A stretch of DNA of 32,000 nucleotides from Nanobdellota archaeon. GTDB taxonomy: Archaea > Nanobdellota > Nanobdellia > Pacearchaeales > GW2011-AR1. This document shows, piece by piece, positions 17,061-32,000 of the stretch. Every line of letters begins with the position of its first letter. Position 1 is the stretch's first letter. The DNA lies in the NCBI GenBank assembly GCA_030611805.1, contig JAUWPB010000009.1:1-32000 (forward strand). Reading direction: 5' to 3'. Under the pieces are notes generated by a model. The model ran no database searches, was not told where the DNA came from, and saw only the letters and a list, made by a program, of their open reading frames with translations. The translations under genes and the position numbers were made by a program.

Positions 17061-17083
17061 CACAATCCTTGGTTCTATTATAT

Positions 17084-17156
17084 GCGGAGGTGGCACAGCG
17101 GCTACTGCAATCGGTTGCAGCCCGGTTTTTCGTGGGTTCGAGTCCCATCCTCCGCT
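17084..17156 (+). tRNA. tRNA-Cys (GCA)
   Basis: Hand fold: acceptor GCGGAGG/CCTCCGC, anticodon arm ATCGG-TTGCAGC-CCGGT, T arm GTGGG-TTCGAGT-CCCAT. The discriminator is U73, the Cys identity element. 73 nt, no intron. Confidence 0.88.
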
Positions 17157-17170
17157 TATTAAAAAAGAAA

Positions 17171-18046
17171 ATGCTCCCTTGGTATATTCTGTCACTAACA
17201 TCCGCCGTGTTCTCAGCAATGGCTGCAATAACTCAAAAAAAAGTCCTGTTTAAAGAAACAGCTCTTGGATTTTCAACACTGGTTGCAATATTTAATCTAA
17301 TCATCGCTATTCCTTTTTTCTTTTTCATAGACTTCTCAAATCTTACTTCCTCGGGATTATTCGTTTTATTTATTAAATCTATTTTAGGAGCAGTTTCATT
17401 TCTTTGTGTGATGCTTGGAATAAAAAATCTTGAAATAAGCAGGGCTCTTCCTTTGCTGGTTCTTACACCCGGATTAGTTGCATTTTTCGCATTTTTATTT
17501 TTAGGAGAATCTCTTTCTAATATTGAAATTATGGGAATGCTCTTCCTTATTGCAGGAACATATTCCCTTTCACTGAAAAAAAGACAAGAATTAGAAGACC
17601 CTGTTGAAGAGTCAATTAAACCAAAAGGGCATTATTATATTATTGCAGCTCTTATTTTATTTACAATAACTGCTATATTAGATAAAGCTATTTTAACGGA
17701 TTTTAAGGTTCCATTAAATACTTTTATGGGATTTCAACACTTATTTTTAGCAATAATATTTTTTACAATAATCATTTTTTCAGGAAAAACCAAATCCGTC
17801 AAATCCAGTTTTAAAAATTCCTGGAAGTTTATTTTATTAATTTCTTTTATTACAATCACATACAGATATACTCATTTACTGGCAATAAAAATCGCTCCTG
17901 TTGCACTTGCACTTTCTCTCAAACGGGTTTCTGTATTTATTGCAGTAGTAATCGGAGGGACATTATTCAAAGAACATAATCTTGTAAGAAAAATAATAGC
18001 AACAATAATAATGACTATCGGAGCAATATTAATTATTAATGGTTAA
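17171..18046 (+). CDS. EamA/DMT-superfamily transporter
   Basis: ~10 TM segments in two EamA-like halves. I chose the ATG at 17171 because the track start at 17069 runs through the tRNA-Cys gene. Confidence 0.8.
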   Translation: MLPWYILSLTSAVFSAMAAITQKKVLFKETALGFSTLVAIFNLIIAIPFFFFIDFSNLTSSGLFVLFIKSILGAVSFLCVMLGIKNLEISRALPLLVLTPGLVAFFAFLFLGESLSNIEIMGMLFLIAGTYSLSLKKRQELEDPVEESIKPKGHYYIIAALILFTITAILDKAILTDFKVPLNTFMGFQHLFLAIIFFTIIIFSGKTKSVKSSFKNSWKFILLISFITITYRYTHLLAIKIAPVALALSLKRVSVFIAVVIGGTLFKEHNLVRKIIATIIMTIGAILIING

Positions 18047-22704: not shown

Positions 22705-22801
22705 TGCCCCGGACAGGATTTGAACCTGCGACCTACTGCTTTCTTCCTTTCTTTCCCTTTATTAGAAGGCAGTCGCTCTATCCAAGCTGAGCTACCGAGG
22801 C
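22705..22801 (-). tRNA. tRNA-Arg (TCT) with a canonical 22-nt intron after position 37
   Basis: The reverse complement folds as follows: acceptor GCCTCGG/CCGGGGC, D arm GCTC..GAGC, anticodon stem ACTGC/GCAGT, loop CTTCTA[intron ATAAAGGGAAAGAAAGGAAGAA at 22741-22762]A, T arm GCAGG-TTCAAAT-CCTGT, discriminator A. Confidence 0.88.
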
Positions 22802-25222: not shown

Positions 25223-26155
25223 ATGGCAGGAATAAAAAAATGCCCTGAATGTGGAAGCATACATTTAACTTATGATGCACATTTAGGAGAAATAATTTGC
25301 AACGATTGTGGTCTTGTAATAGAAGAAAAAATGGTTGATTCTGGAATAGACTTGCAGGGAAAATTTGACAAAGGCAAAAAAAAGGGACGGGGCGGAGCTC
25401 CAATGAGCATGCAAAAATTTGACAAAGGTCTGACAACCAATGTTGGAGAAATCTCAGATATTTACAAATTAGAACCAGGGCAAACAAGGAAATTCTTAAG
25501 ACTAAAAAAATGGCAGGAAAGAGTTTCCACAAGTATTGAAAGAAATTTGAGACTAGCCATGGCAGAATTAAGAGTTATTGCTTCTTATCTTCATTTACCA
25601 AATGTTGTAAGAGATGAATCATCAAGAATTTACAATTATGTTTTACAAAGAGGACTGGTAAGAGGTAGAAGCATGGAATCAGTAATTGCTGCTTGTTTGT
25701 ATGCTGCATGCCGTTCATATAATATCCCAAGAACACTTGATGAAATGGCAACAGCGTCTGATGTTGAAAGAAAAGAAATAGGAAGAACTTATAGATTTAT
25801 AATAAGAAAATTAGGAATTAAAGTAAAACAAAGCTCTCCAAAAGATTACATCTCACGATTTTCTTCAGTTTTAAAACTATCTCCTAAAACACAAAATGAA
25901 GCTTTGAAGGTATTAAAACAGGCAGAAGAAGTTGAGCTAACTTCAGGGAGAGGTCCTGCAGGAATTGCAGCAGCAGCATTATATGTAGCGGCTTTAATAA
26001 ATGACGAAAAGAAAACCCAAAGAGAGGTTGCAGACATTGCAGGAATAACAGAAGTAACAATAAGAAACAGATATAAAGAACTTATAGAAAGATTAAATTT
26101 AGAAGAAAAAATAAAACAAAAAGAAAAGGAATTTAGCAAAAAGAAATCATCCTAG
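25223..26155 (+). CDS. tfb: Transcription initiation factor B (TFIIB homolog)
   Basis: An N-terminal Zn ribbon (CPECGS...CNDCG), a B-reader/linker and two cyclin-fold repeats (RGRSMESVIAACLYAACR; GRGPAGIAAAALYVAA). A TTTATAAA box lies ~25 nt upstream of the ATG. Confidence 0.95.
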   Translation: MAGIKKCPECGSIHLTYDAHLGEIICNDCGLVIEEKMVDSGIDLQGKFDKGKKKGRGGAPMSMQKFDKGLTTNVGEISDIYKLEPGQTRKFLRLKKWQERVSTSIERNLRLAMAELRVIASYLHLPNVVRDESSRIYNYVLQRGLVRGRSMESVIAACLYAACRSYNIPRTLDEMATASDVERKEIGRTYRFIIRKLGIKVKQSSPKDYISRFSSVLKLSPKTQNEALKVLKQAEEVELTSGRGPAGIAAAALYVAALINDEKKTQREVADIAGITEVTIRNRYKELIERLNLEEKIKQKEKEFSKKKSS

Positions 26156-26197: not shown

Positions 26198-26308
26198 GCG
26201 GATGCAACTCACAAGCACACTCGCGGAGTAAATAGGCTTCGCAATAAATGCTCGTGTACATTGCTCGGCCGGAGAAAGTCAAACAGGACTTTCTTTCACA
26301 GAAAATTT
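26198..26308 (+). ncRNA. GC-enriched ~110-nt leader/unknown structured RNA upstream of tRNA-Leu; it contains a degenerate copy of the tRNA-Leu D arm
   Basis: Hairpin GCGGAG-taaatagg-CTTCGC at 26223-26242. GCCGGAGAAAGTCAAACAGGAC (26268-26289) matches GCCGGAGTGGTCAAACGGGAC of the tRNA (26317-26337). The region is much more GC-rich than neighbouring intergenic DNA. Confidence 0.3.
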
Positions 26309-26392
26309 GCGGAAGTGCCGGAGTGGTCAAACGGGACAGGTTTAGGACCTGTTGGCTTAGTGCCTACGAGGGTTCGAATCCTTTCTTCCGCA
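26309..26392 (+). tRNA. tRNA-Leu (TAG), class II with a long variable arm
   Basis: Acceptor GCGGAAG/CTTCCGC, anticodon arm ACAGG-TTTAGGA-CCTGT, variable arm TGGCTTAGTGCCTAC, T arm GAGGG-TTCGAAT-CCTTT, discriminator A. Confidence 0.85.
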
Positions 26393-26443
26393 TCTGTATT
26401 TTTGATTTTCTCACCCTACGGGTTTCCCACAAGGGGATGACCT

Positions 26444-26472
26444 CTACGAGGCCGCGAATCCTTTCTTCCGCA
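26444..26472 (+). repeat. Partial duplicate of the tRNA-Leu 3' end (T arm plus acceptor), 80 nt downstream of the original
   Basis: CTACGAGGccgCGAATCCTTTCTTCCGCA versus CTACGAGGgttCGAATCCTTTCTTCCGCA at 26364-26392: 26/29 identical. The three changes destroy the T loop. Confidence 0.85.
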
Positions 26473-26537: not shown

Positions 26538-29500
26538 TCAAAAAGCATAAAATGTATCCACAGTAATCTCAGAACCAACTATAACTTCTATTTCTGAAGG
26601 ATCATAAACTTTAAATCTGTAATGATTCTCATCATAATTCGCCATACTTTGCCGAATCAAATTAACCTCATAAGGCAGATAAAATCTTTCATTAATCTCT
26701 TTCACACTTGTTTGAAAAATAAACTTATCTACTTTGCTTCCAAAAACAGATGGATTATAAATCTCCAAAAAATAACCTTCACAATTTTCCATTGAAGTGA
26801 TATCTAACTCCACATAAACTTTCCCTGGAGAAACATCTCTTTTTCCTATAACTTGTAGGGATTTATCAACCCACCGAGCATTTTTAATGCAAGGATCATT
26901 CGCTTTTACATATTCTTTCGGAGAGTTCTCTTCTATATTCAACTCTGCAGAAATCACTTCAGATTCATCATACCAAAGCAATTCCTCATTTGAATCATAA
27001 CAATAAACTTCTGCATAAAAATCAAACACTAAACCTGAATCTTCAAGAGCAACCAACTCTTCAAGATTAAATTCAATAATATTTTCATTAGATATCCCTT
27101 CAGCTCTTTTAGAATCAGGAAATAAATTATCCAGTCCAAACAAATTTCTCCTATGAATAATATTATATTTAATTGAATCACAAATAAAATCAACATGAAG
27201 TATAAGTTTATTTGTTCCTTCCATTTGATAAAAAGAAACACTCTCGGAATCACTTTCAGATATCTGGCTTTTTGGCTCACTGGACATTTCAACTACAAAA
27301 TCTGTAGAGTACTTTACATAATATTCAAATACTTTTAAAACATAATTTTGAGTTTCTAAAGGCAAGTCATCTTTACAATCAGAAAAGTATTTCCCAGCAC
27401 ATTTTTTTTTAACTTTGGTTGGTCCAGCATTATAAGCAGCAATTGCTAACTCATTATCGGTTATTCCATAAACCTCTTGTAAACATTTAAAGTAACAAGT
27501 TCCCAAATTCACATTTGTTTTTGCTCCTTCAAAAGTGTTTTCTTTCCACTTTTCTTGATAATAATCATTACATAAAGAATAACATGGTTTGCTTGAGTCT
27601 TTGATATCATCAACTGCTCCAACTACTTTAGCTCCATTGGTTCCTCTTTCAAGCAATTGCATTAAACCAGTGCTTCCATCTGGACTAATTGCGTCTTGAT
27701 TCCAATTACTTTCCACACGAATAATCGCTTTAACCAGATTTTCATCCACATTTTGCTCTTTTGCTATCTTCTCTATCATATCCTTGTAATCTTTCATTTT
27801 CGCAATCTCTTTTTTAGCTTCCTCTACACTTCTACTATCCTCTCCATTTTCAAGCTCTCCAACCAAACCAGAATAAGCATTTCCCCTTAACAACAATAAC
27901 TCAGCTTTCTCTTTATTTAAAAACGCTTTCTTCATCACCTCCTCGCTAATCTTACTAACTGCTTCTTCAAAAAATTCCCTTTCTCCCCTACTCTTACCTT
28001 CTTCAATCAACTCTCTAATTTTTTCAACCAAATCATTAAATACACTTTCTCCAAAATATCCTCCCTCTTCTTTCAACAACTCCAATTGACTTTTTGCATG
28101 TTCTTCTAAAACTCTCTCCTCAATATCAGTATGCTTAATCACATTTTCAACACTCTTTTTATCAAGCCAGCATTTTATATTTTCCTGACCGCAATTACCA
28201 ACCTGAATCCATCTCGCACCCTCGCCATCCCAAGCCCCGTCTGTTCCTTTTCCCGGACTCTCTGTCGCACAAATCCTGATTATCCCTCTGTTGTAAATCG
28301 CAGGATTAATCATCTCATCTGCAGCTCCTTCCAAACTCGGGCTCAGCAAACTATACGCACTCACACTTCCTCCAATACACTCTTTCTCTAATTTAATATC
28401 TCTCTCACTTGCCTGCTCTTCCATATATCTTTCTCTAACATAATTAACTGCGTATGACGTCGAGACCTGCTTAAACCCGCACTCTTCCTGATTATTAACC
28501 ATGATACATAACTCCTTGTAACCAGAAGGCGCAGTAAAGTCCTTTGTCTCAGTTGCATATCCTCCTGTTGTAATATACCCAGAAGCAACATTTCTAATCG
28601 GGGTGTCTTGGTAAAACGAAGTTCCAGGCGGGCTCTTTAAATAAACTCTGTAGTAAGCCCGTGACTCTTTCCCGGCATAAATATGGTAAAACACTTTGTA
28701 GTGTGAGATTGGCGGACTTGTTGCAGTTGTAAATGGTATCTCGTCAAACCTTCCATGAAACTGGGGCGGGGAGTCTGGCTCTGTTAAACTATCAAGCAAA
28801 TTCCCTCCATCTGGATAACTTGCTGAAATAGAACTCTGGCAAACAGCGTCGCCCACTCCTTCTACAATCCTTGCCTTAAACGCCTGATAAGAACTCGCAG
28901 CATAATACTGCGCAAAATAATCTATTGATTTCTCAGCATTAGCCCACGCAGTCGCAACACCCAAATACTCTCCTCCTCCTCGCACATTCTGCCCCATTGC
29001 AATTTCCATCATTTTTGGAATAATTATTTTAGCCAAAGGCAAAGACTGTCTCCAGAAAAACTCGCACAAGTGAATGCTATAAATCTCGTCGCAGATTCCA
29101 ACCATCTTGCCAGTGTCCAGACTCTCCTGCAAACAATCCCTATAAGAAGTATAAACAGAAATCAGCCCATCAATCCCTGCCTTTATTCCAGTCAAACAAA
29201 CAGGAATTTTAACTTCAGGCCAATTAGGCAGGCACAATGCAATACTCCCAATTATCCCTGACTGAATTACATCTTTAACATGATAAGTTCCTCCAAAATT
29301 ACACCTGCTTGAAGGACACACCACAGGGTCGCAGACATTGAAAAGCAACTGGCAATCTTTCGGTGACATAAAACTCTGGCACTGCATCTCCGGCACATCA
29401 ACAGCAGGTTCACACACCCGAACACTCTGCCCATTAATCATTATACTCTTCCCTGAACTTGCTGACTTCTGTTTTCTTGAAGCTTCTGCAATAGCATCCT

Positions 29501-32000
29501 TGGCATCATTTACAATCTTCAAAGACACACTATCACTAAGACCTGAAATTTTAATTGGCTGTCCTGTTCCTGTATTTATCATAGTGCAGTCATCATCTGG
29601 ATTTCTATTTTGTTCAATTCCATTCTTTCCAACATTACAAACCCAAAAACTCTCTACTCTTCCTGACTCGCTATAAGATTTAATCCCCCCAAAAACAGGA
29701 AGTACTTGTGAAACTGAAGCATACCACCCATTTTTTAAATCAAAAGGCACAATCGCAGGAAGTCTTTTACCTGGCTCTGTCTCATAATATCTCAGACAAG
29801 GAGTTTTCTTCCCAAGAGAAGATATGTAAGGATTTTGATATGTTGAAGAATCTCGTTTTTCATAAATTAATCTCAAAGGATTTCTTTGATTATTCTTATC
29901 ATCTCCTGTATATTCTTCCAAAGTATTAATTCCCTCTTTGCTCGTAGCAGTAATCTCATAAGTTTTTTCTACAGAATTATCATCATCTAACATAAGAATA
30001 TATTCACTATTTGTTGTAGGGTCTTTATAATTCTGGACATGTTTATCATTATCTATAGTTGCTCCAGAGTATTTTTCATCCACAGAACCCCATTTTACAT
30101 CTTGGGTAAAAGGAATTTTCTTTTGTCTTTTATCAAACGACATTATATGTACTTCTGGAAAACCTGTTCGCTCAGCAAAATTAGTCATTTCTTTAGCATC
30201 TTTATTACTAACCCAGATACTTATAATATCTTTTTCAATTTTTTTATCCGCCATCTCTTTTAATGAACCAGTAAGCTGTGAATTCAAATTTAAACTTTTT
30301 AATTCACTTATTGAAACAATATCTTTTTTTAGATAATTATCAACAAAATTATTAACTTGAATTGTTGTTCCTTCATATTTAATTCCTTTAGGAAACTTTT
30401 GATTAAGATTAGTTTTTAATTTTTCAACAAAATCTTCATCATCAAGCAACTTTTCTTTAAGTTTTTCATTATTAATATTTCTTTCTCCCAACCAATTTTT
30501 TGTAGTTATTTCTGAGTCATCTTGTAAATCCTCAAAATAATCATTGTGTCCTTTTAATGCTTCATCATATTCATCAACAGCATCATTAATATACTTGCTC
30601 TTCTCAACAAAACATTCATTCAAAGTCTTATAACCCTCTTCCCCCCAATCTCCTTTTCCATTAATCGCATTTGCACACATTAAATTAATTTCCGTCATAA
30701 CTTCTTGTCTTGCAATTGCTTTTCCCCCGGTGTTTGCGAAAAAATTCTTCACAGTCAAAAAAGTCCCTGTCGCCAAACACGCTGTCTTAAGCCCTTGCAC
30801 AACCTTGCCAAGCTGTTCAGACTTTTTTTCCCAACCCTCAATTGTCTTGTTCAACTGCTCAATTTTTTCCCTTGTCTTCTCAGGAGAAAGTTTTATCGCC
30901 CTTTGCTCAATCCCAATCTTAAAACTAAAGTTCGCCTCTGTCCCTGCATTATTAATATTCGGAACAACAGAAACCTTTACTGATTTTTTCAGGTTTATTT
31001 TTGTTAAAGTGAAAATATAACCACTGCCTACACTCTCTGAAACACCTTCTTTTAAGATTTTTGTATCACTAGAAATTGTAGCTTTCTTAATTGTTTCCCA
31101 TACTCCTTCTGGAAGAAGATTAAGTTTTATTTTGGCTTCGCCATCATCTAAAGAAATAAGTTGAACAGTCTCTTTAGTGCTTTCATCTGCATCTCTAAAT
31201 TCATCTAAATAAATAATCTGGTTTTTTCCAAAAGAAAAAGATGTTGTTTTCCCATTAGGACCGCTTACTCTTATCTCAGCACTATATTCCTTCAAAGTTG
31301 GCTCATAAACTCCATCAAAAGAAATCCTTTTAACCACTCCACTAATTGAAACATCTCTGCTCGCAATTTCAGAACTTGAAAGCTTATATAAATCATCACA
31401 ATATTTTTTCAAATCCTGTTTAGAATCAGGGTATTGGTTTTTAAATTCCTTGCACAAATCAATAATTGTTTTTTTCTGCTCCGTATTCCATGCCAAAAGT
31501 ATCTTCCTATACAAGGCCTCTTCACCATAAGTTATTTTAGTATTTGAAATTTGTTCAAAAGGAAAACTTTTAATAATTAAATTATAATCTTGGTTTGCTG
31601 ATTCATAATACTCTTTCTTTTCCTCGCCAAAACCTTTATCAACTGCTCCTGCAAAACCAATTATCTCTATTTCTTTTCCTCCAATTCTTGTGGTTTTTTC
31701 TGAATAAGAAAGACGAGTAAGAGATGTTCCATCAGTTAACCATTTGTAAAAATTTGTCGCTACACCAACATAAACCTTGCCTAAATTAAACATAAAATCA
31801 GCAACTCCTACTCCTGTCACTTTTTGATATTCATAAGAATATACTAATCTATTAATAGAAGAAAGTTCATCTTCAGTTAATCCATCAATAGTTCTATGCT
31901 GAGGTATTGCAACAAAATAAAAATATAAATTTTTTAAATTTTCAGTATCTCCTTTTGTCCCAATATAACCAAGATAAACAGATTTTTCATTATCATCTGT
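26538..32000 (-). CDS. Giant (more than 1,820 aa, 5' end outside the window) Cys-rich protein with an embedded lytic transglycosylase (SLT/GH23) domain
   Basis: The 1,760-codon track ORF starts at a GTG. Hand translation shows the same frame stays open from 31821 to 32000 (...IDGLTEDELSSINRLVYSYEYQK-VTGVGV...). The SLT motif is listed as a separate feature. Confidence 0.85.
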   Translation of the reverse strand, partial: TDDNEKSVYLGYIGTKGDTENLKNLYFYFVAIPQHRTIDGLTEDELSSINRLVYSYEYQKVTGVGVADFMFNLGKVYVGVATNFYKWLTDGTSLTRLSYSEKTTRIGGKEIEIIGFAGAVDKGFGEEKKEYYESANQDYNLIIKSFPFEQISNTKITYGEEALYRKILLAWNTEQKKTIIDLCKEFKNQYPDSKQDLKKYCDDLYKLSSSEIASRDVSISGVVKRISFDGVYEPTLKEYSAEIRVSGPNGKTTSFSFGKNQIIYLDEFRDADESTKETVQLISLDDGEAKIKLNLLPEGVWETIKKATISSDTKILKEGVSESVGSGYIFTLTKINLKKSVKVSVVPNINNAGTEANFSFKIGIEQRAIKLSPEKTREKIEQLNKTIEGWEKKSEQLGKVVQGLKTACLATGTFLTVKNFFANTGGKAIARQEVMTEINLMCANAINGKGDWGEEGYKTLNECFVEKSKYINDAVDEYDEALKGHNDYFEDLQDDSEITTKNWLGERNINNEKLKEKLLDDEDFVEKLKTNLNQKFPKGIKYEGTTIQVNNFVDNYLKKDIVSISELKSLNLNSQLTGSLKEMADKKIEKDIISIWVSNKDAKEMTNFAERTGFPEVHIMSFDKRQKKIPFTQDVKWGSVDEKYSGATIDNDKHVQNYKDPTTNSEYILMLDDDNSVEKTYEITATSKEGINTLEEYTGDDKNNQRNPLRLIYEKRDSSTYQNPYISSLGKKTPCLRYYETEPGKRLPAIVPFDLKNGWYASVSQVLPVFGGIKSYSESGRVESFWVCNVGKNGIEQNRNPDDDCTMINTGTGQPIKISGLSDSVSLKIVNDAKDAIAEASRKQKSASSGKSIMINGQSVRVCEPAVDVPEMQCQSFMSPKDCQLLFNVCDPVVCPSSRCNFGGTYHVKDVIQSGIIGSIALCLPNWPEVKIPVCLTGIKAGIDGLISVYTSYRDCLQESLDTGKMVGICDEIYSIHLCEFFWRQSLPLAKIIIPKMMEIAMGQNVRGGGEYLGVATAWANAEKSIDYFAQYYAASSYQAFKARIVEGVGDAVCQSSISASYPDGGNLLDSLTEPDSPPQFHGRFDEIPFTTATSPPISHYKVFYHIYAGKESRAYYRVYLKSPPGTSFYQDTPIRNVASGYITTGGYATETKDFTAPSGYKELCIMVNNQEECGFKQVSTSYAVNYVRERYMEEQASERDIKLEKECIGGSVSAYSLLSPSLEGAADEMINPAIYNRGIIRICATESPGKGTDGAWDGEGARWIQVGNCGQENIKCWLDKKSVENVIKHTDIEERVLEEHAKSQLELLKEEGGYFGESVFNDLVEKIRELIEEGKSRGEREFFEEAVSKISEEVMKKAFLNKEKAELLLLRGNAYSGLVGELENGEDSRSVEEAKKEIAKMKDYKDMIEKIAKEQNVDENLVKAIIRVESNWNQDAISPDGSTGLMQLLERGTNGAKVVGAVDDIKDSSKPCYSLCNDYYQEKWKENTFEGAKTNVNLGTCYFKCLQEVYGITDNELAIAAYNAGPTKVKKKCAGKYFSDCKDDLPLETQNYVLKVFEYYVKYSTDFVVEMSSEPKSQISESDSESVSFYQMEGTNKLILHVDFICDSIKYNIIHRRNLFGLDNLFPDSKRAEGISNENIIEFNLEELVALEDSGLVFDFYAEVYCYDSNEELLWYDESEVISAELNIEENSPKEYVKANDPCIKNARWVDKSLQVIGKRDVSPGKVYVELDITSMENCEGYFLEIYNPSVFGSKVDKFIFQTSVKEINERFYLPYEVNLIRQSMANYDENHYRFKVYDPSEIEVIVGSEITVDTFYAF
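27400..27760 (-). other. SLT/GH23 lytic transglycosylase domain inside the giant ORF
   Basis: IIRVESNWNQDAISPDGSTGLMQL has the catalytic Glu in E-S and the GLMQ motif, with the Glu codon at 27711-27713. Downstream is AAYNAGPTKV (AYNAG motif, 27423-27440). Confidence 0.8.

Follow-up and report, generated by a model that had tools for sequence, protein, structure and literature searches.

Giant predicted lytic transglycosylases of DPANN archaea

Very large proteins carrying a soluble lytic transglycosylase (SLT) domain, described as fam00969, are widespread in Pacearchaeota and Woesearchaeota, and have been proposed to act outside the cell as enzymes by which the archaea attach to bacterial cell walls, with 'cell defense' also mentioned (Castelle et al., 2021; PMC8204110). 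The same paper refers to previous observations of such proteins by Rinke 2013 and Castelle 2015. A 'large lytic murein transglycosylase' was presented as evidence for predatory Woesearchaeota (Vigneron et al., 2022; PMC9723730), two 2024 papers made the same point on murein transglycosylases (PMC10936187, PMC11537232), and feeding on the peptidoglycan of dead cells was suggested in one of them (PMC11537232). Here, we analyzed a stretch of 32,000 nucleotides from a Nanobdellota archaeon (assembly GCA_030611805.1, contig JAUWPB010000009.1, positions 1 to 32,000), referred to below as the window. At its right edge, the minus strand encodes the larger part of such a giant protein, designated P0001.

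P0001 is a member of the reported giant extracellular murein lytic transglycosylase proteins, whose published description it matches in lineage, giant size (up to ∼3000 amino acids, aa), extracellular prediction and the possession of an SLT domain of glycoside hydrolase family 23 (GH23); nothing essential sets it apart from the fam00969 proteins (PMC8204110, PMC9723730). The central claim of the initial annotation of this stretch, a giant archaeal SLT protein, was already known. In the published reports, the SLT domain is the defining feature of the family, and there is no description of the majority without SLT, of other hydrolase tails, of the partner or of the conserved locus; a literature search on the scaffold, its partner and members lacking SLT likewise turned up only the SLT reports. 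The results that go beyond those reports are the scaffold as a conserved unit, its swappable tails, a pilin-like partner and a conserved locus. Nanohaloarchaeota are also known to encode giant secreted proteins of several domains, called SPEARE, for which a role in host interaction is assumed. P0001 is likewise giant, secreted and multidomain, but no sequence relationship to SPEARE was detected, and SPEARE proteins belong to other lineages, combine other domains (protease, adhesion, restriction endonuclease) and are associated with archaeal hosts.

Translation of the minus-strand frame showed no stop over 1820 codons, for which the chance probability is ∼10^-72 from the AT-rich composition of the stretch. 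As initially annotated, the frame is open to the window edge and the N-terminus lies outside it. The complete protein of 2168 aa was recovered by a database match with 100% identity across the whole in-window part, and its first 348 aa lie beyond position 32000. Recovery of this N-terminus, which had been suggested as a check, revealed a Sec-type signal peptide (MKTNNKLKLGMFFLVVILLMVSVSA, with the cut placed before DY), the sole segment of P0001 hydrophobic enough for a membrane helix; the call was made by a hydropathy heuristic rather than a trained signal-peptide predictor. A similar Sec-type N-terminus was found in 108 of 120 relatives. Given this signal, P0001 is predicted to be Sec-exported and extracellular.

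A chimeric assembly was also considered and ruled out. An independent Logan assembly of run SRR12623521 (L002) contains the identical 2168-aa open reading frame (ORF), an orthologue on an ENA contig (2167 aa, 86% identity) is colinear with P0001, and 120 homologues are colinear with it across aa 1 to ∼1720. Because the independent assembly and the colinear homologues agree, the giant ORF is a real and correctly described feature. The attribution of the stretch to an archaeon was equally well founded, as the window encodes transcription factor IIB (TFIIB), a tRNA intron endonuclease and an intron-bearing tRNA; it also encodes several aminoacyl-tRNA synthetases and has a GC content of ∼0.30.

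The SLT domain was identified by Pfam PF01464 (66.6 bits, cut-off 21.3; E=1.8e-18), and the NCBIfam models Slt70, MltC, MltF and EmtA match the same region. A search of PDB sequences retrieved Slt70 (E=4e-8 with the domain alone), MltC and MltE. In the residue-level alignment, position 44 of the domain query (E1778 of P0001) pairs with residue 478 of 1qsa, which places it on the catalytic Glu478 of Slt70; the initial annotation had already marked this Glu as catalytic. The GLMQL and AAYNAGP motifs of P0001 align with GLMQI and AAYNAGP of Slt70, and the ES motif is kept. Among the GH23 domains of the family, the Glu is invariant (53/53) and the Ser of the E-S motif is retained in 47 of 53. P0001 thus carries a bona fide bacterial-type GH23 lytic transglycosylase domain with intact catalytic motifs and a predicted activity.

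The catalytic domain resembles Escherichia coli Slt70, MltC and MltE in its E-S, GLMQ and AYNAG motifs, whereas its host is an archaeon without murein. In comparison with Slt70, only ∼130 of the 2168 aa are related, the superhelical U and L domains are absent, and a Cys-containing insertion of ∼20 aa separates GLMQ from the next motif. The AlphaFold2 (AF2) model of the SLT region was helical, with a predicted local distance difference test score (pLDDT) of ∼55-80, i.e., of moderate confidence. A Foldseek search with this model gave MltE (6gi4) with a probability of 0.98 but a non-significant E-value of 0.1. A lysozyme-like fold of the region is suggested by the alignments rather than by the model.

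A conserved scaffold with exchangeable tails

At least 231 relatives were retrieved by homology search, all 1.9-3.0 thousand aa in length and all from Pacearchaeota, Nanoarchaeota or 'archaeon' metagenome-assembled genomes (MAGs), with a scaffold identity of 40-66%. Some are annotated as 'transglycosylase SLT domain-containing protein [Candidatus Pacearchaeota archaeon]', and most are without a recorded Pfam domain. A scan of GTDB, with one genome per species, identified 483 stretches encoding relatives. The best 80 of these 483 stretches come from Pacearchaeota, Woesearchaeota or Nanoarchaeota MAGs, except one labelled Bacillota. This contig (L030, DATKUW010000047.1) was deposited as 'Bacillota bacterium' and is probably mis-binned. 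One Pacearchaeota MAG (JAAOYJ01, L025 and L084) has two scaffold loci, which represent either paralogues or a mixed bin.

Tails were surveyed in 120 relatives. BLAST aligned aa 1 to ∼1720 of P0001 in essentially all of them, and aa 1750-2168 in only 2-14. Judged by these alignments, the conserved unit of the family is a scaffold of ∼1700 aa and not the SLT domain. The N-terminal half was modelled well, as a chain of β-sandwich domains and long helices (mean pLDDT 72.9), for which Foldseek gave no match at E≤0.001 in PDB or BFVD; the hits obtained were generic Ig-like adhesins at E>0.03. The model of the C-terminal 1079 aa was weak (pLDDT 55.6), and the Cys-rich region within it fell below 50, leaving no readable fold. 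The fold search that had been suggested for the Cys-rich core was run on these models, and the C-terminal model had no PDB match at E≤0.001, the matches being generic Ig-like sandwiches. At the sequence level, full-length P0001 was compared with PHROGs and PDB sequences, its in-window part with Pfam and NCBIfam, and a family profile with the PDB, and matches were confined to the SLT region. The scaffold is without a recognisable structural or fold relative in the databases searched.

The scaffold core is marked by the motifs FNVCDPV[IV]CPSSRC and GGGEYLG, and 19 of its 20 Cys residues are invariant, as counted in a 40-sequence alignment. The whole protein contains 42 Cys (1.9%); the description 'Cys-rich' therefore holds for the core, with 20 of the 42, and not for the protein as a whole. 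The regional composition described initially was reproduced, with GC of 0.31 in the N-terminal part, 0.41 in the core and 0.30 in the tail. GC at third codon positions (GC3) is 0.35-0.41 in the core and ∼0.20 elsewhere in the gene, a difference shared by the 86% relative and barely by distant ones. This rise is not accounted for by amino-acid content, and intra-family recombination or codon selection are possible explanations. The hydrophobic stretches that had been noted in the core correspond to the most hydrophobic non-signal windows of the protein (Kyte-Doolittle hydropathy 1.1-1.3, aa ∼1214-1424) but are too weak for a transmembrane (TM) helix, and TM segments in the core were rejected at a maximum of 1.33 per 19-aa window.

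At the end of the scaffold, the acidic, coiled-coil-like linker recognised in the initial annotation was modelled as a long helix. Of the two β-rich C-terminal modules proposed there, the presence of two modules was upheld, and their β structure was modelled weakly. The last 268 aa of P0001 found six weak relatives in 1.84 billion protein representatives, all to the second module. Both are presumed binding modules, and their near-orphan status would fit fast-evolving, possibly target-specific ones.

The GH23 domain was traced in the relatives with a hidden Markov model iterated to convergence over the 120 proteins. A GH23-like domain was found in 53, always with the catalytic Glu and usually no more than 30-40 residues from the C-terminus. 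In two relatives, the SLT module lies within the scaffold's N-terminal half and not at the C-terminus (P0052, aa 653-813; P0075, aa 648-787). A second tail class, composed of three recurring modules, occurred in 48 of the 120 relatives, 44 of them without SLT. Its Cys-His module, module A, was extracted from 28 of the 48 proteins; in an 18-sequence alignment, its Cys and His do not vary and its Asp hardly does. Coherent but sub-threshold matches were obtained for seven of these 18 sequences, namely to NLPC_P60 (4/18), Amidase_6 (2/18, best E=2.8e-4) and CHAP (1/18), and the module A profile had no match among PDB sequences. Module A is probably a papain-fold, NlpC/P60-like wall amidase or peptidase, a putative assignment that applies to ∼28 of the 120. 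Single relatives carry, according to their Pfam records, a glucosaminidase (GH73, PF01832), M23 (PF01551), VanY/LdcB (PF02557), trypsin-like (PF13365) or Hint domain. The domain assignments indicate that the hydrolase is a swappable tail, and that the scaffold repeatedly carries different enzymes, most of them predicted to attack murein.

Polymorphic toxins such as Rhs and CdiA are built alike, with a long conserved N-terminal region and an enzymatic C-terminal module that varies and is exchanged from one relative to the next; Makarova et al. reportedly surveyed archaeal polymorphic toxins in 2019. The giant family differs from these in having no YD/Rhs or FHA repeats, orphan cassettes or downstream immunity gene. 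Downstream lie tRNA-Leu and TFIIB instead (in the window and in three of four relatives), and the tails are wall hydrolases, not nucleases or deaminases. The coordinates of the features are collected in Table 1.

Table 1. Features of P0001 and its locus. Positions refer to the window unless a contig is named; residues are numbered along P0001 unless stated as in-window.
Feature	Position	Strand	Basis or remark
Giant secreted protein P0001, aa 349-2168 and stop	26538..32000	-	ORF translation, database match, independent assembly
N-terminal scaffold, aa 349-1089: β-sandwich domains alternating with helical hairpins/long helices	29778..32000	-	Kept in nearly all 120 relatives; AF2
Scaffold core, most conserved part, aa 1090-1725; 19 invariant Cys	27870..29777	-	GC 0.41, GC3 0.35; alignment
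Cys-cluster and amphipathic Gly-rich helical region, aa ∼1214-1424	28773..29405	-	Helix prediction, low confidence
Ig/FnIII-like β-sandwich domain, aa ∼1424-1529	28458..28775	-	pLDDT 75-82; generic β-sandwich matches only
Acidic long-helix (coiled-coil-like) linker, aa ∼1629-1734, end of family-wide conserved region	27843..28160	-	AF2 pLDDT 82-93
SLT/GH23 family-1 lytic transglycosylase domain, in-window aa 1408-1539	27384..27779	-	Pfam, NCBIfam, PDB, PHROG matches
Catalytic Glu codon, E1778	27711..27713	-	Aligned with Slt70 Glu478; invariant in 53 domain-bearing relatives
Two lineage-specific C-terminal modules, aa 1901-2168, near-orphan	26541..27344	-	AF2, representative search
18-nt exact duplicate of tRNA-Leu 3' end	26455..26472	+	Repeat comparison; also in relatives
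tRNA-Leu(TAG), complete	26308..26394	+	Between giant gene and TFIIB in relatives
TFIIB gene, conserved neighbour marking core archaeal chromosome	25223..26155	+	Synteny in relatives
Partner gene in relative L001	17816-19678	-	Class-III signal, 4-nt overlap
Partner gene in relative L003	6149-7999		Class-III signal, 4-nt overlap
Partner gene in relative L004	6172-8004		Class-III signal, 4-nt overlap
Partner gene in relative L005	6169-8004		Class-III signal, 4-nt overlap

Pilin-like partner and locus

Upstream of the giant gene, past the window end, lies a gene for a partner protein of ∼610 aa that overlaps it by 4 nt. Owing to this overlap, the two genes are probably co-transcribed. In 61 of 80 GTDB loci, the partner gene precedes the giant gene on the same strand, and the remaining loci are mostly truncated contigs; a small two-TM protein of 64-73 aa is encoded just upstream of the partner. 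The partner family comprises at least 2422 clusters, none of them annotated, with 63-85% identity among the top 120. The class-III motif [GAS]Q[VLIM]T[IVLM]F occurs within the first 50 aa in 116 of these 120, with R or K at position -2 in 100 of the 116; the FlaFind-type pattern, [KR]-[GAS]-Q-[VLI]-T-[IVL]-F, is followed by a hydrophobic helix of ∼20 aa. The motif was present in none of the 120 giant proteins. By motif match, the partner has a type-IV-pilin-like (class III) signal; it had no match in Pfam, NCBIfam or PDB.

A purely functional analogy can be drawn with the type IV pilus tip and minor-pilin complexes of ultrasmall episymbionts such as Saccharibacteria (PMC9894109): here too, the gene for a pilin-like protein is coupled to that of a large surface protein, and the organism has a reduced genome and presumably lives on other cells. 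The partner differs from type IV pilins in its length of 610 aa and in matching no pilin model, and no pilus assembly ATPase or peptidase genes were found in the locus. Inspection of the genes beyond position 32000 for secretion, pilus or virion functions, as had been suggested, yielded the pilin-like partner and no assembly machinery of this kind.

The coupling to a pilin-like protein raises a further explanation, in which the SLT domain would cut a murein-like polymer of the archaeon itself so that a surface appendage could be inserted. Dedicated lytic transglycosylases accompany bacterial envelope-spanning machines: specialised enzymes such as FlgJ, VirB1 and EtgA serve flagella, type III and type IV secretion systems and type IV pili. 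This self-directed remodelling is very unlikely here, however, as the window holds no murein synthesis genes, the DPANN papers treat murein as foreign to these archaea, and the enzyme is located at the far end of an extracellular protein of 2000 aa. GH23 enzymes are also not known to cleave pseudomurein, the glycan of which contains a β-1,3 linkage to N-acetyltalosaminuronic acid.

The order of genes around the giant gene was compared between genomes. The locus begins with rpS3Ae and an eL42-like gene, followed divergently by the two-TM protein, sometimes an ORF of ∼40 aa, the ∼610-aa protein and the giant gene, and then convergently by TFIIB, rpS8e, LSM and RNase Z. The 86% orthologue shows the same order, and so do three more distant relatives (42-49% identity), including one with a VanY tail in place of SLT. 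A tRNA-Leu lies between the giant gene and TFIIB in three of four relatives; in L004, TFIIB is directly next and no tRNA-Leu was detected. As this housekeeping neighbourhood, with the partner, is kept in relatives of 42-86% identity, gene order and sequence comparison indicate that the giant gene is a vertically inherited, syntenic core gene and not a mobile one.

The initial annotation had suggested, as an alternative to host or prey interaction, a mobile-element, phage or conjugation entry apparatus, with probable horizontal acquisition in either case, and had pointed to an att-like tRNA-Leu fragment at the 3' end of the gene. An entry apparatus derived from a virus or mobile element (a tail lysin, tape measure or VirB1-like protein) and recently acquired at a tRNA att site would agree with the PHROG matches to endolysin and lytic tail proteins, with the duplicated tRNA-Leu 3' end beside the gene, and with the transposase and methylase insertions nearby in two relatives. 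The PHROG matches of P0001, however, cover the SLT domain only, and no scaffold relative was found among the 2.9 million viral contigs of IMG/VR. Gene annotation of the window detected no virion, conjugation, integrase or secretion genes; unlike a phage tail lysin, tape measure or VirB1, the giant gene has housekeeping neighbours rather than a virion or conjugation cluster. The tRNA-Leu fragment does exist as an 18-nt exact copy (29 nt with three mismatches), while the tRNA-Leu itself is complete, the repeat encloses ∼60 bp from which the giant gene is excluded, and the tRNA belongs to the synteny that is kept down to 42% identity. The implied att site for the gene was not borne out, and synteny, composition and the lack of relatives on viral contigs led us to reject a recent horizontal transfer or mobile island. 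An entry apparatus of this origin has hardly any probability left.

The source of the SLT module was considered separately. The nearest SLT domains outside the family belong to small bacterial lytic transglycosylases (named hits from Nitrospirae and Aquirhabdus) at ≤42% identity, and the SLT region has a host-like GC3 of 0.23. On account of this composition, the conserved synteny and the low outside identity, the module is bacterial in type but appears anciently resident, with no sign of recent transfer in its sequence.

Duplication of the tRNA-Leu 3' end was also seen in related genomes (L001 11153-11250; L006; L010), with spacings of 80, 251 and 152 nt, and the repeat looks like an old att-like integration scar kept in the clade. 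An insertion of up to ∼8 kb lies between TFIIB and rpS8e in two relatives (L001 3503-9900, L003 15887-21788). Both insertions encode a DDE transposase and DNA methyltransferases, and that of L001 also encodes a DEAD/SNF2 helicase. The insertion is absent from L004, L005 and apparently from the window, and looks like a variable defence or mobile island. Elsewhere in the window, a 97-nt intron-containing tRNA (22705-22801, minus strand) was called by ARAGORN as tRNA-Ile with anticodon AAT, which is unusual for an archaeon and may reflect a mis-parsed intron position. An EamA-family transporter ORF (17069-18046, plus strand) overlaps tRNA-Cys (17084-17156, plus strand); its true start codon must therefore be downstream of the tRNA.

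Proposed role at the cell surface

On balance, we favour the interpretation that P0001 is a GH23-bearing surface protein that is anchored by its partner and acts on bacterial walls. A role against bacterial walls was put forward in the initial annotation and had already been proposed in print (PMC8204110, PMC9723730); it is strengthened by the relatives, which hold other classes of murein hydrolase at the same position. The pilin-like partner would hold or assemble the giant protein at the archaeal surface, and the scaffold would act as a stalk that projects the C-terminal enzyme outward. Upon contact with a bacterium, the enzyme would locally cleave the bonds between N-acetylmuramic acid and N-acetylglucosamine. 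The sacculus would thereby be opened, which may help the archaeon to attach, give it access to the membrane and contents of the bacterium, or release wall fragments on which it could feed. The scaffold would, in other species, deliver an NlpC/P60-like, GH73, M23 or VanY hydrolase.

Several observations weigh against this interpretation. Beyond the 53 GH23 and ∼28 putative papain-like proteins of the 120, the remaining relatives show no recognisable hydrolase, and the papain-like assignment of module A is itself sub-threshold. The AF2 model of the SLT region is moderately confident and its match to MltE is not significant by E-value. The pilin-like signal of the partner is a motif match in a protein that no Pfam, NCBIfam or PDB model recognises. 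No partner organism of Pacearchaeota or Woesearchaeota has been established. Lastly, the scaffold and the partner (63-85% identity) are far more conserved than usual host-specific adhesins, which fits a core envelope structure in which the link to bacteria is secondary.

The scaffold and partner could accordingly form a core, surface-layer (S-layer)-like envelope in which the hydrolases are accessory and serve defence or competition against bacteria or the scavenging of debris, rather than host or prey interaction. The syntenic position among ribosomal and transcription genes, the presence of relatives in 483 GTDB stretches, the very strong conservation of the partner alongside 40-66% identity in the scaffold, and the relatives without a GH23 or Cys-His module, which show no recognisable hydrolase, agree with such an envelope, as do the 'cell defense' of Castelle et al. 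(PMC8204110) and the dead-cell feeding considered elsewhere (PMC11537232). In contrast, P0001 has no C-terminal membrane anchor or other S-layer hallmark, and Foldseek found no fold similarity to known S-layer proteins. At least five classes of murein hydrolase have been recruited to the same scaffold, which suggests that action on murein is central. The conservation of the partner speaks for a structural machine, and the recurrent acquisition of murein hydrolases for a bacterial target. We regard the core envelope with accessory hydrolases as the main rival and as less likely, and the envelope and the wall-directed surface protein are not mutually exclusive.

A more far-reaching proposal, which we offer tentatively as a possibility, is that the scaffold, the partner and the two-TM protein together make up an undescribed, lineage-wide surface organelle. 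It would be a device for cross-domain attachment or attack with interchangeable murein-hydrolase warheads (GH23, NlpC/P60-like, GH73, M23 and VanY), and the invariant, Cys-rich core with its amphipathic, Gly-rich region might engage the bacterial membrane once the wall has been opened. If true, archaeon-on-bacterium episymbiosis or predation would thereby gain its first molecular apparatus.

Pacearchaeota and Woesearchaeota rank with the most abundant and diverse DPANN lineages, and no host has been established for them. That some of them live on bacteria, and not on archaea, is hinted at in the genomes mainly by the giant murein-hydrolase proteins. The present results sharpen this hint, as they place interchangeable wall enzymes on a universally conserved scaffold without a recognisable structural relative, encoded by a core syntenic gene with a pilin-like partner. 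The SLT module, the partner protein and the relation of tail class to habitat offer practical starting points from which a bacterial host can be tested for in enrichment cultures.

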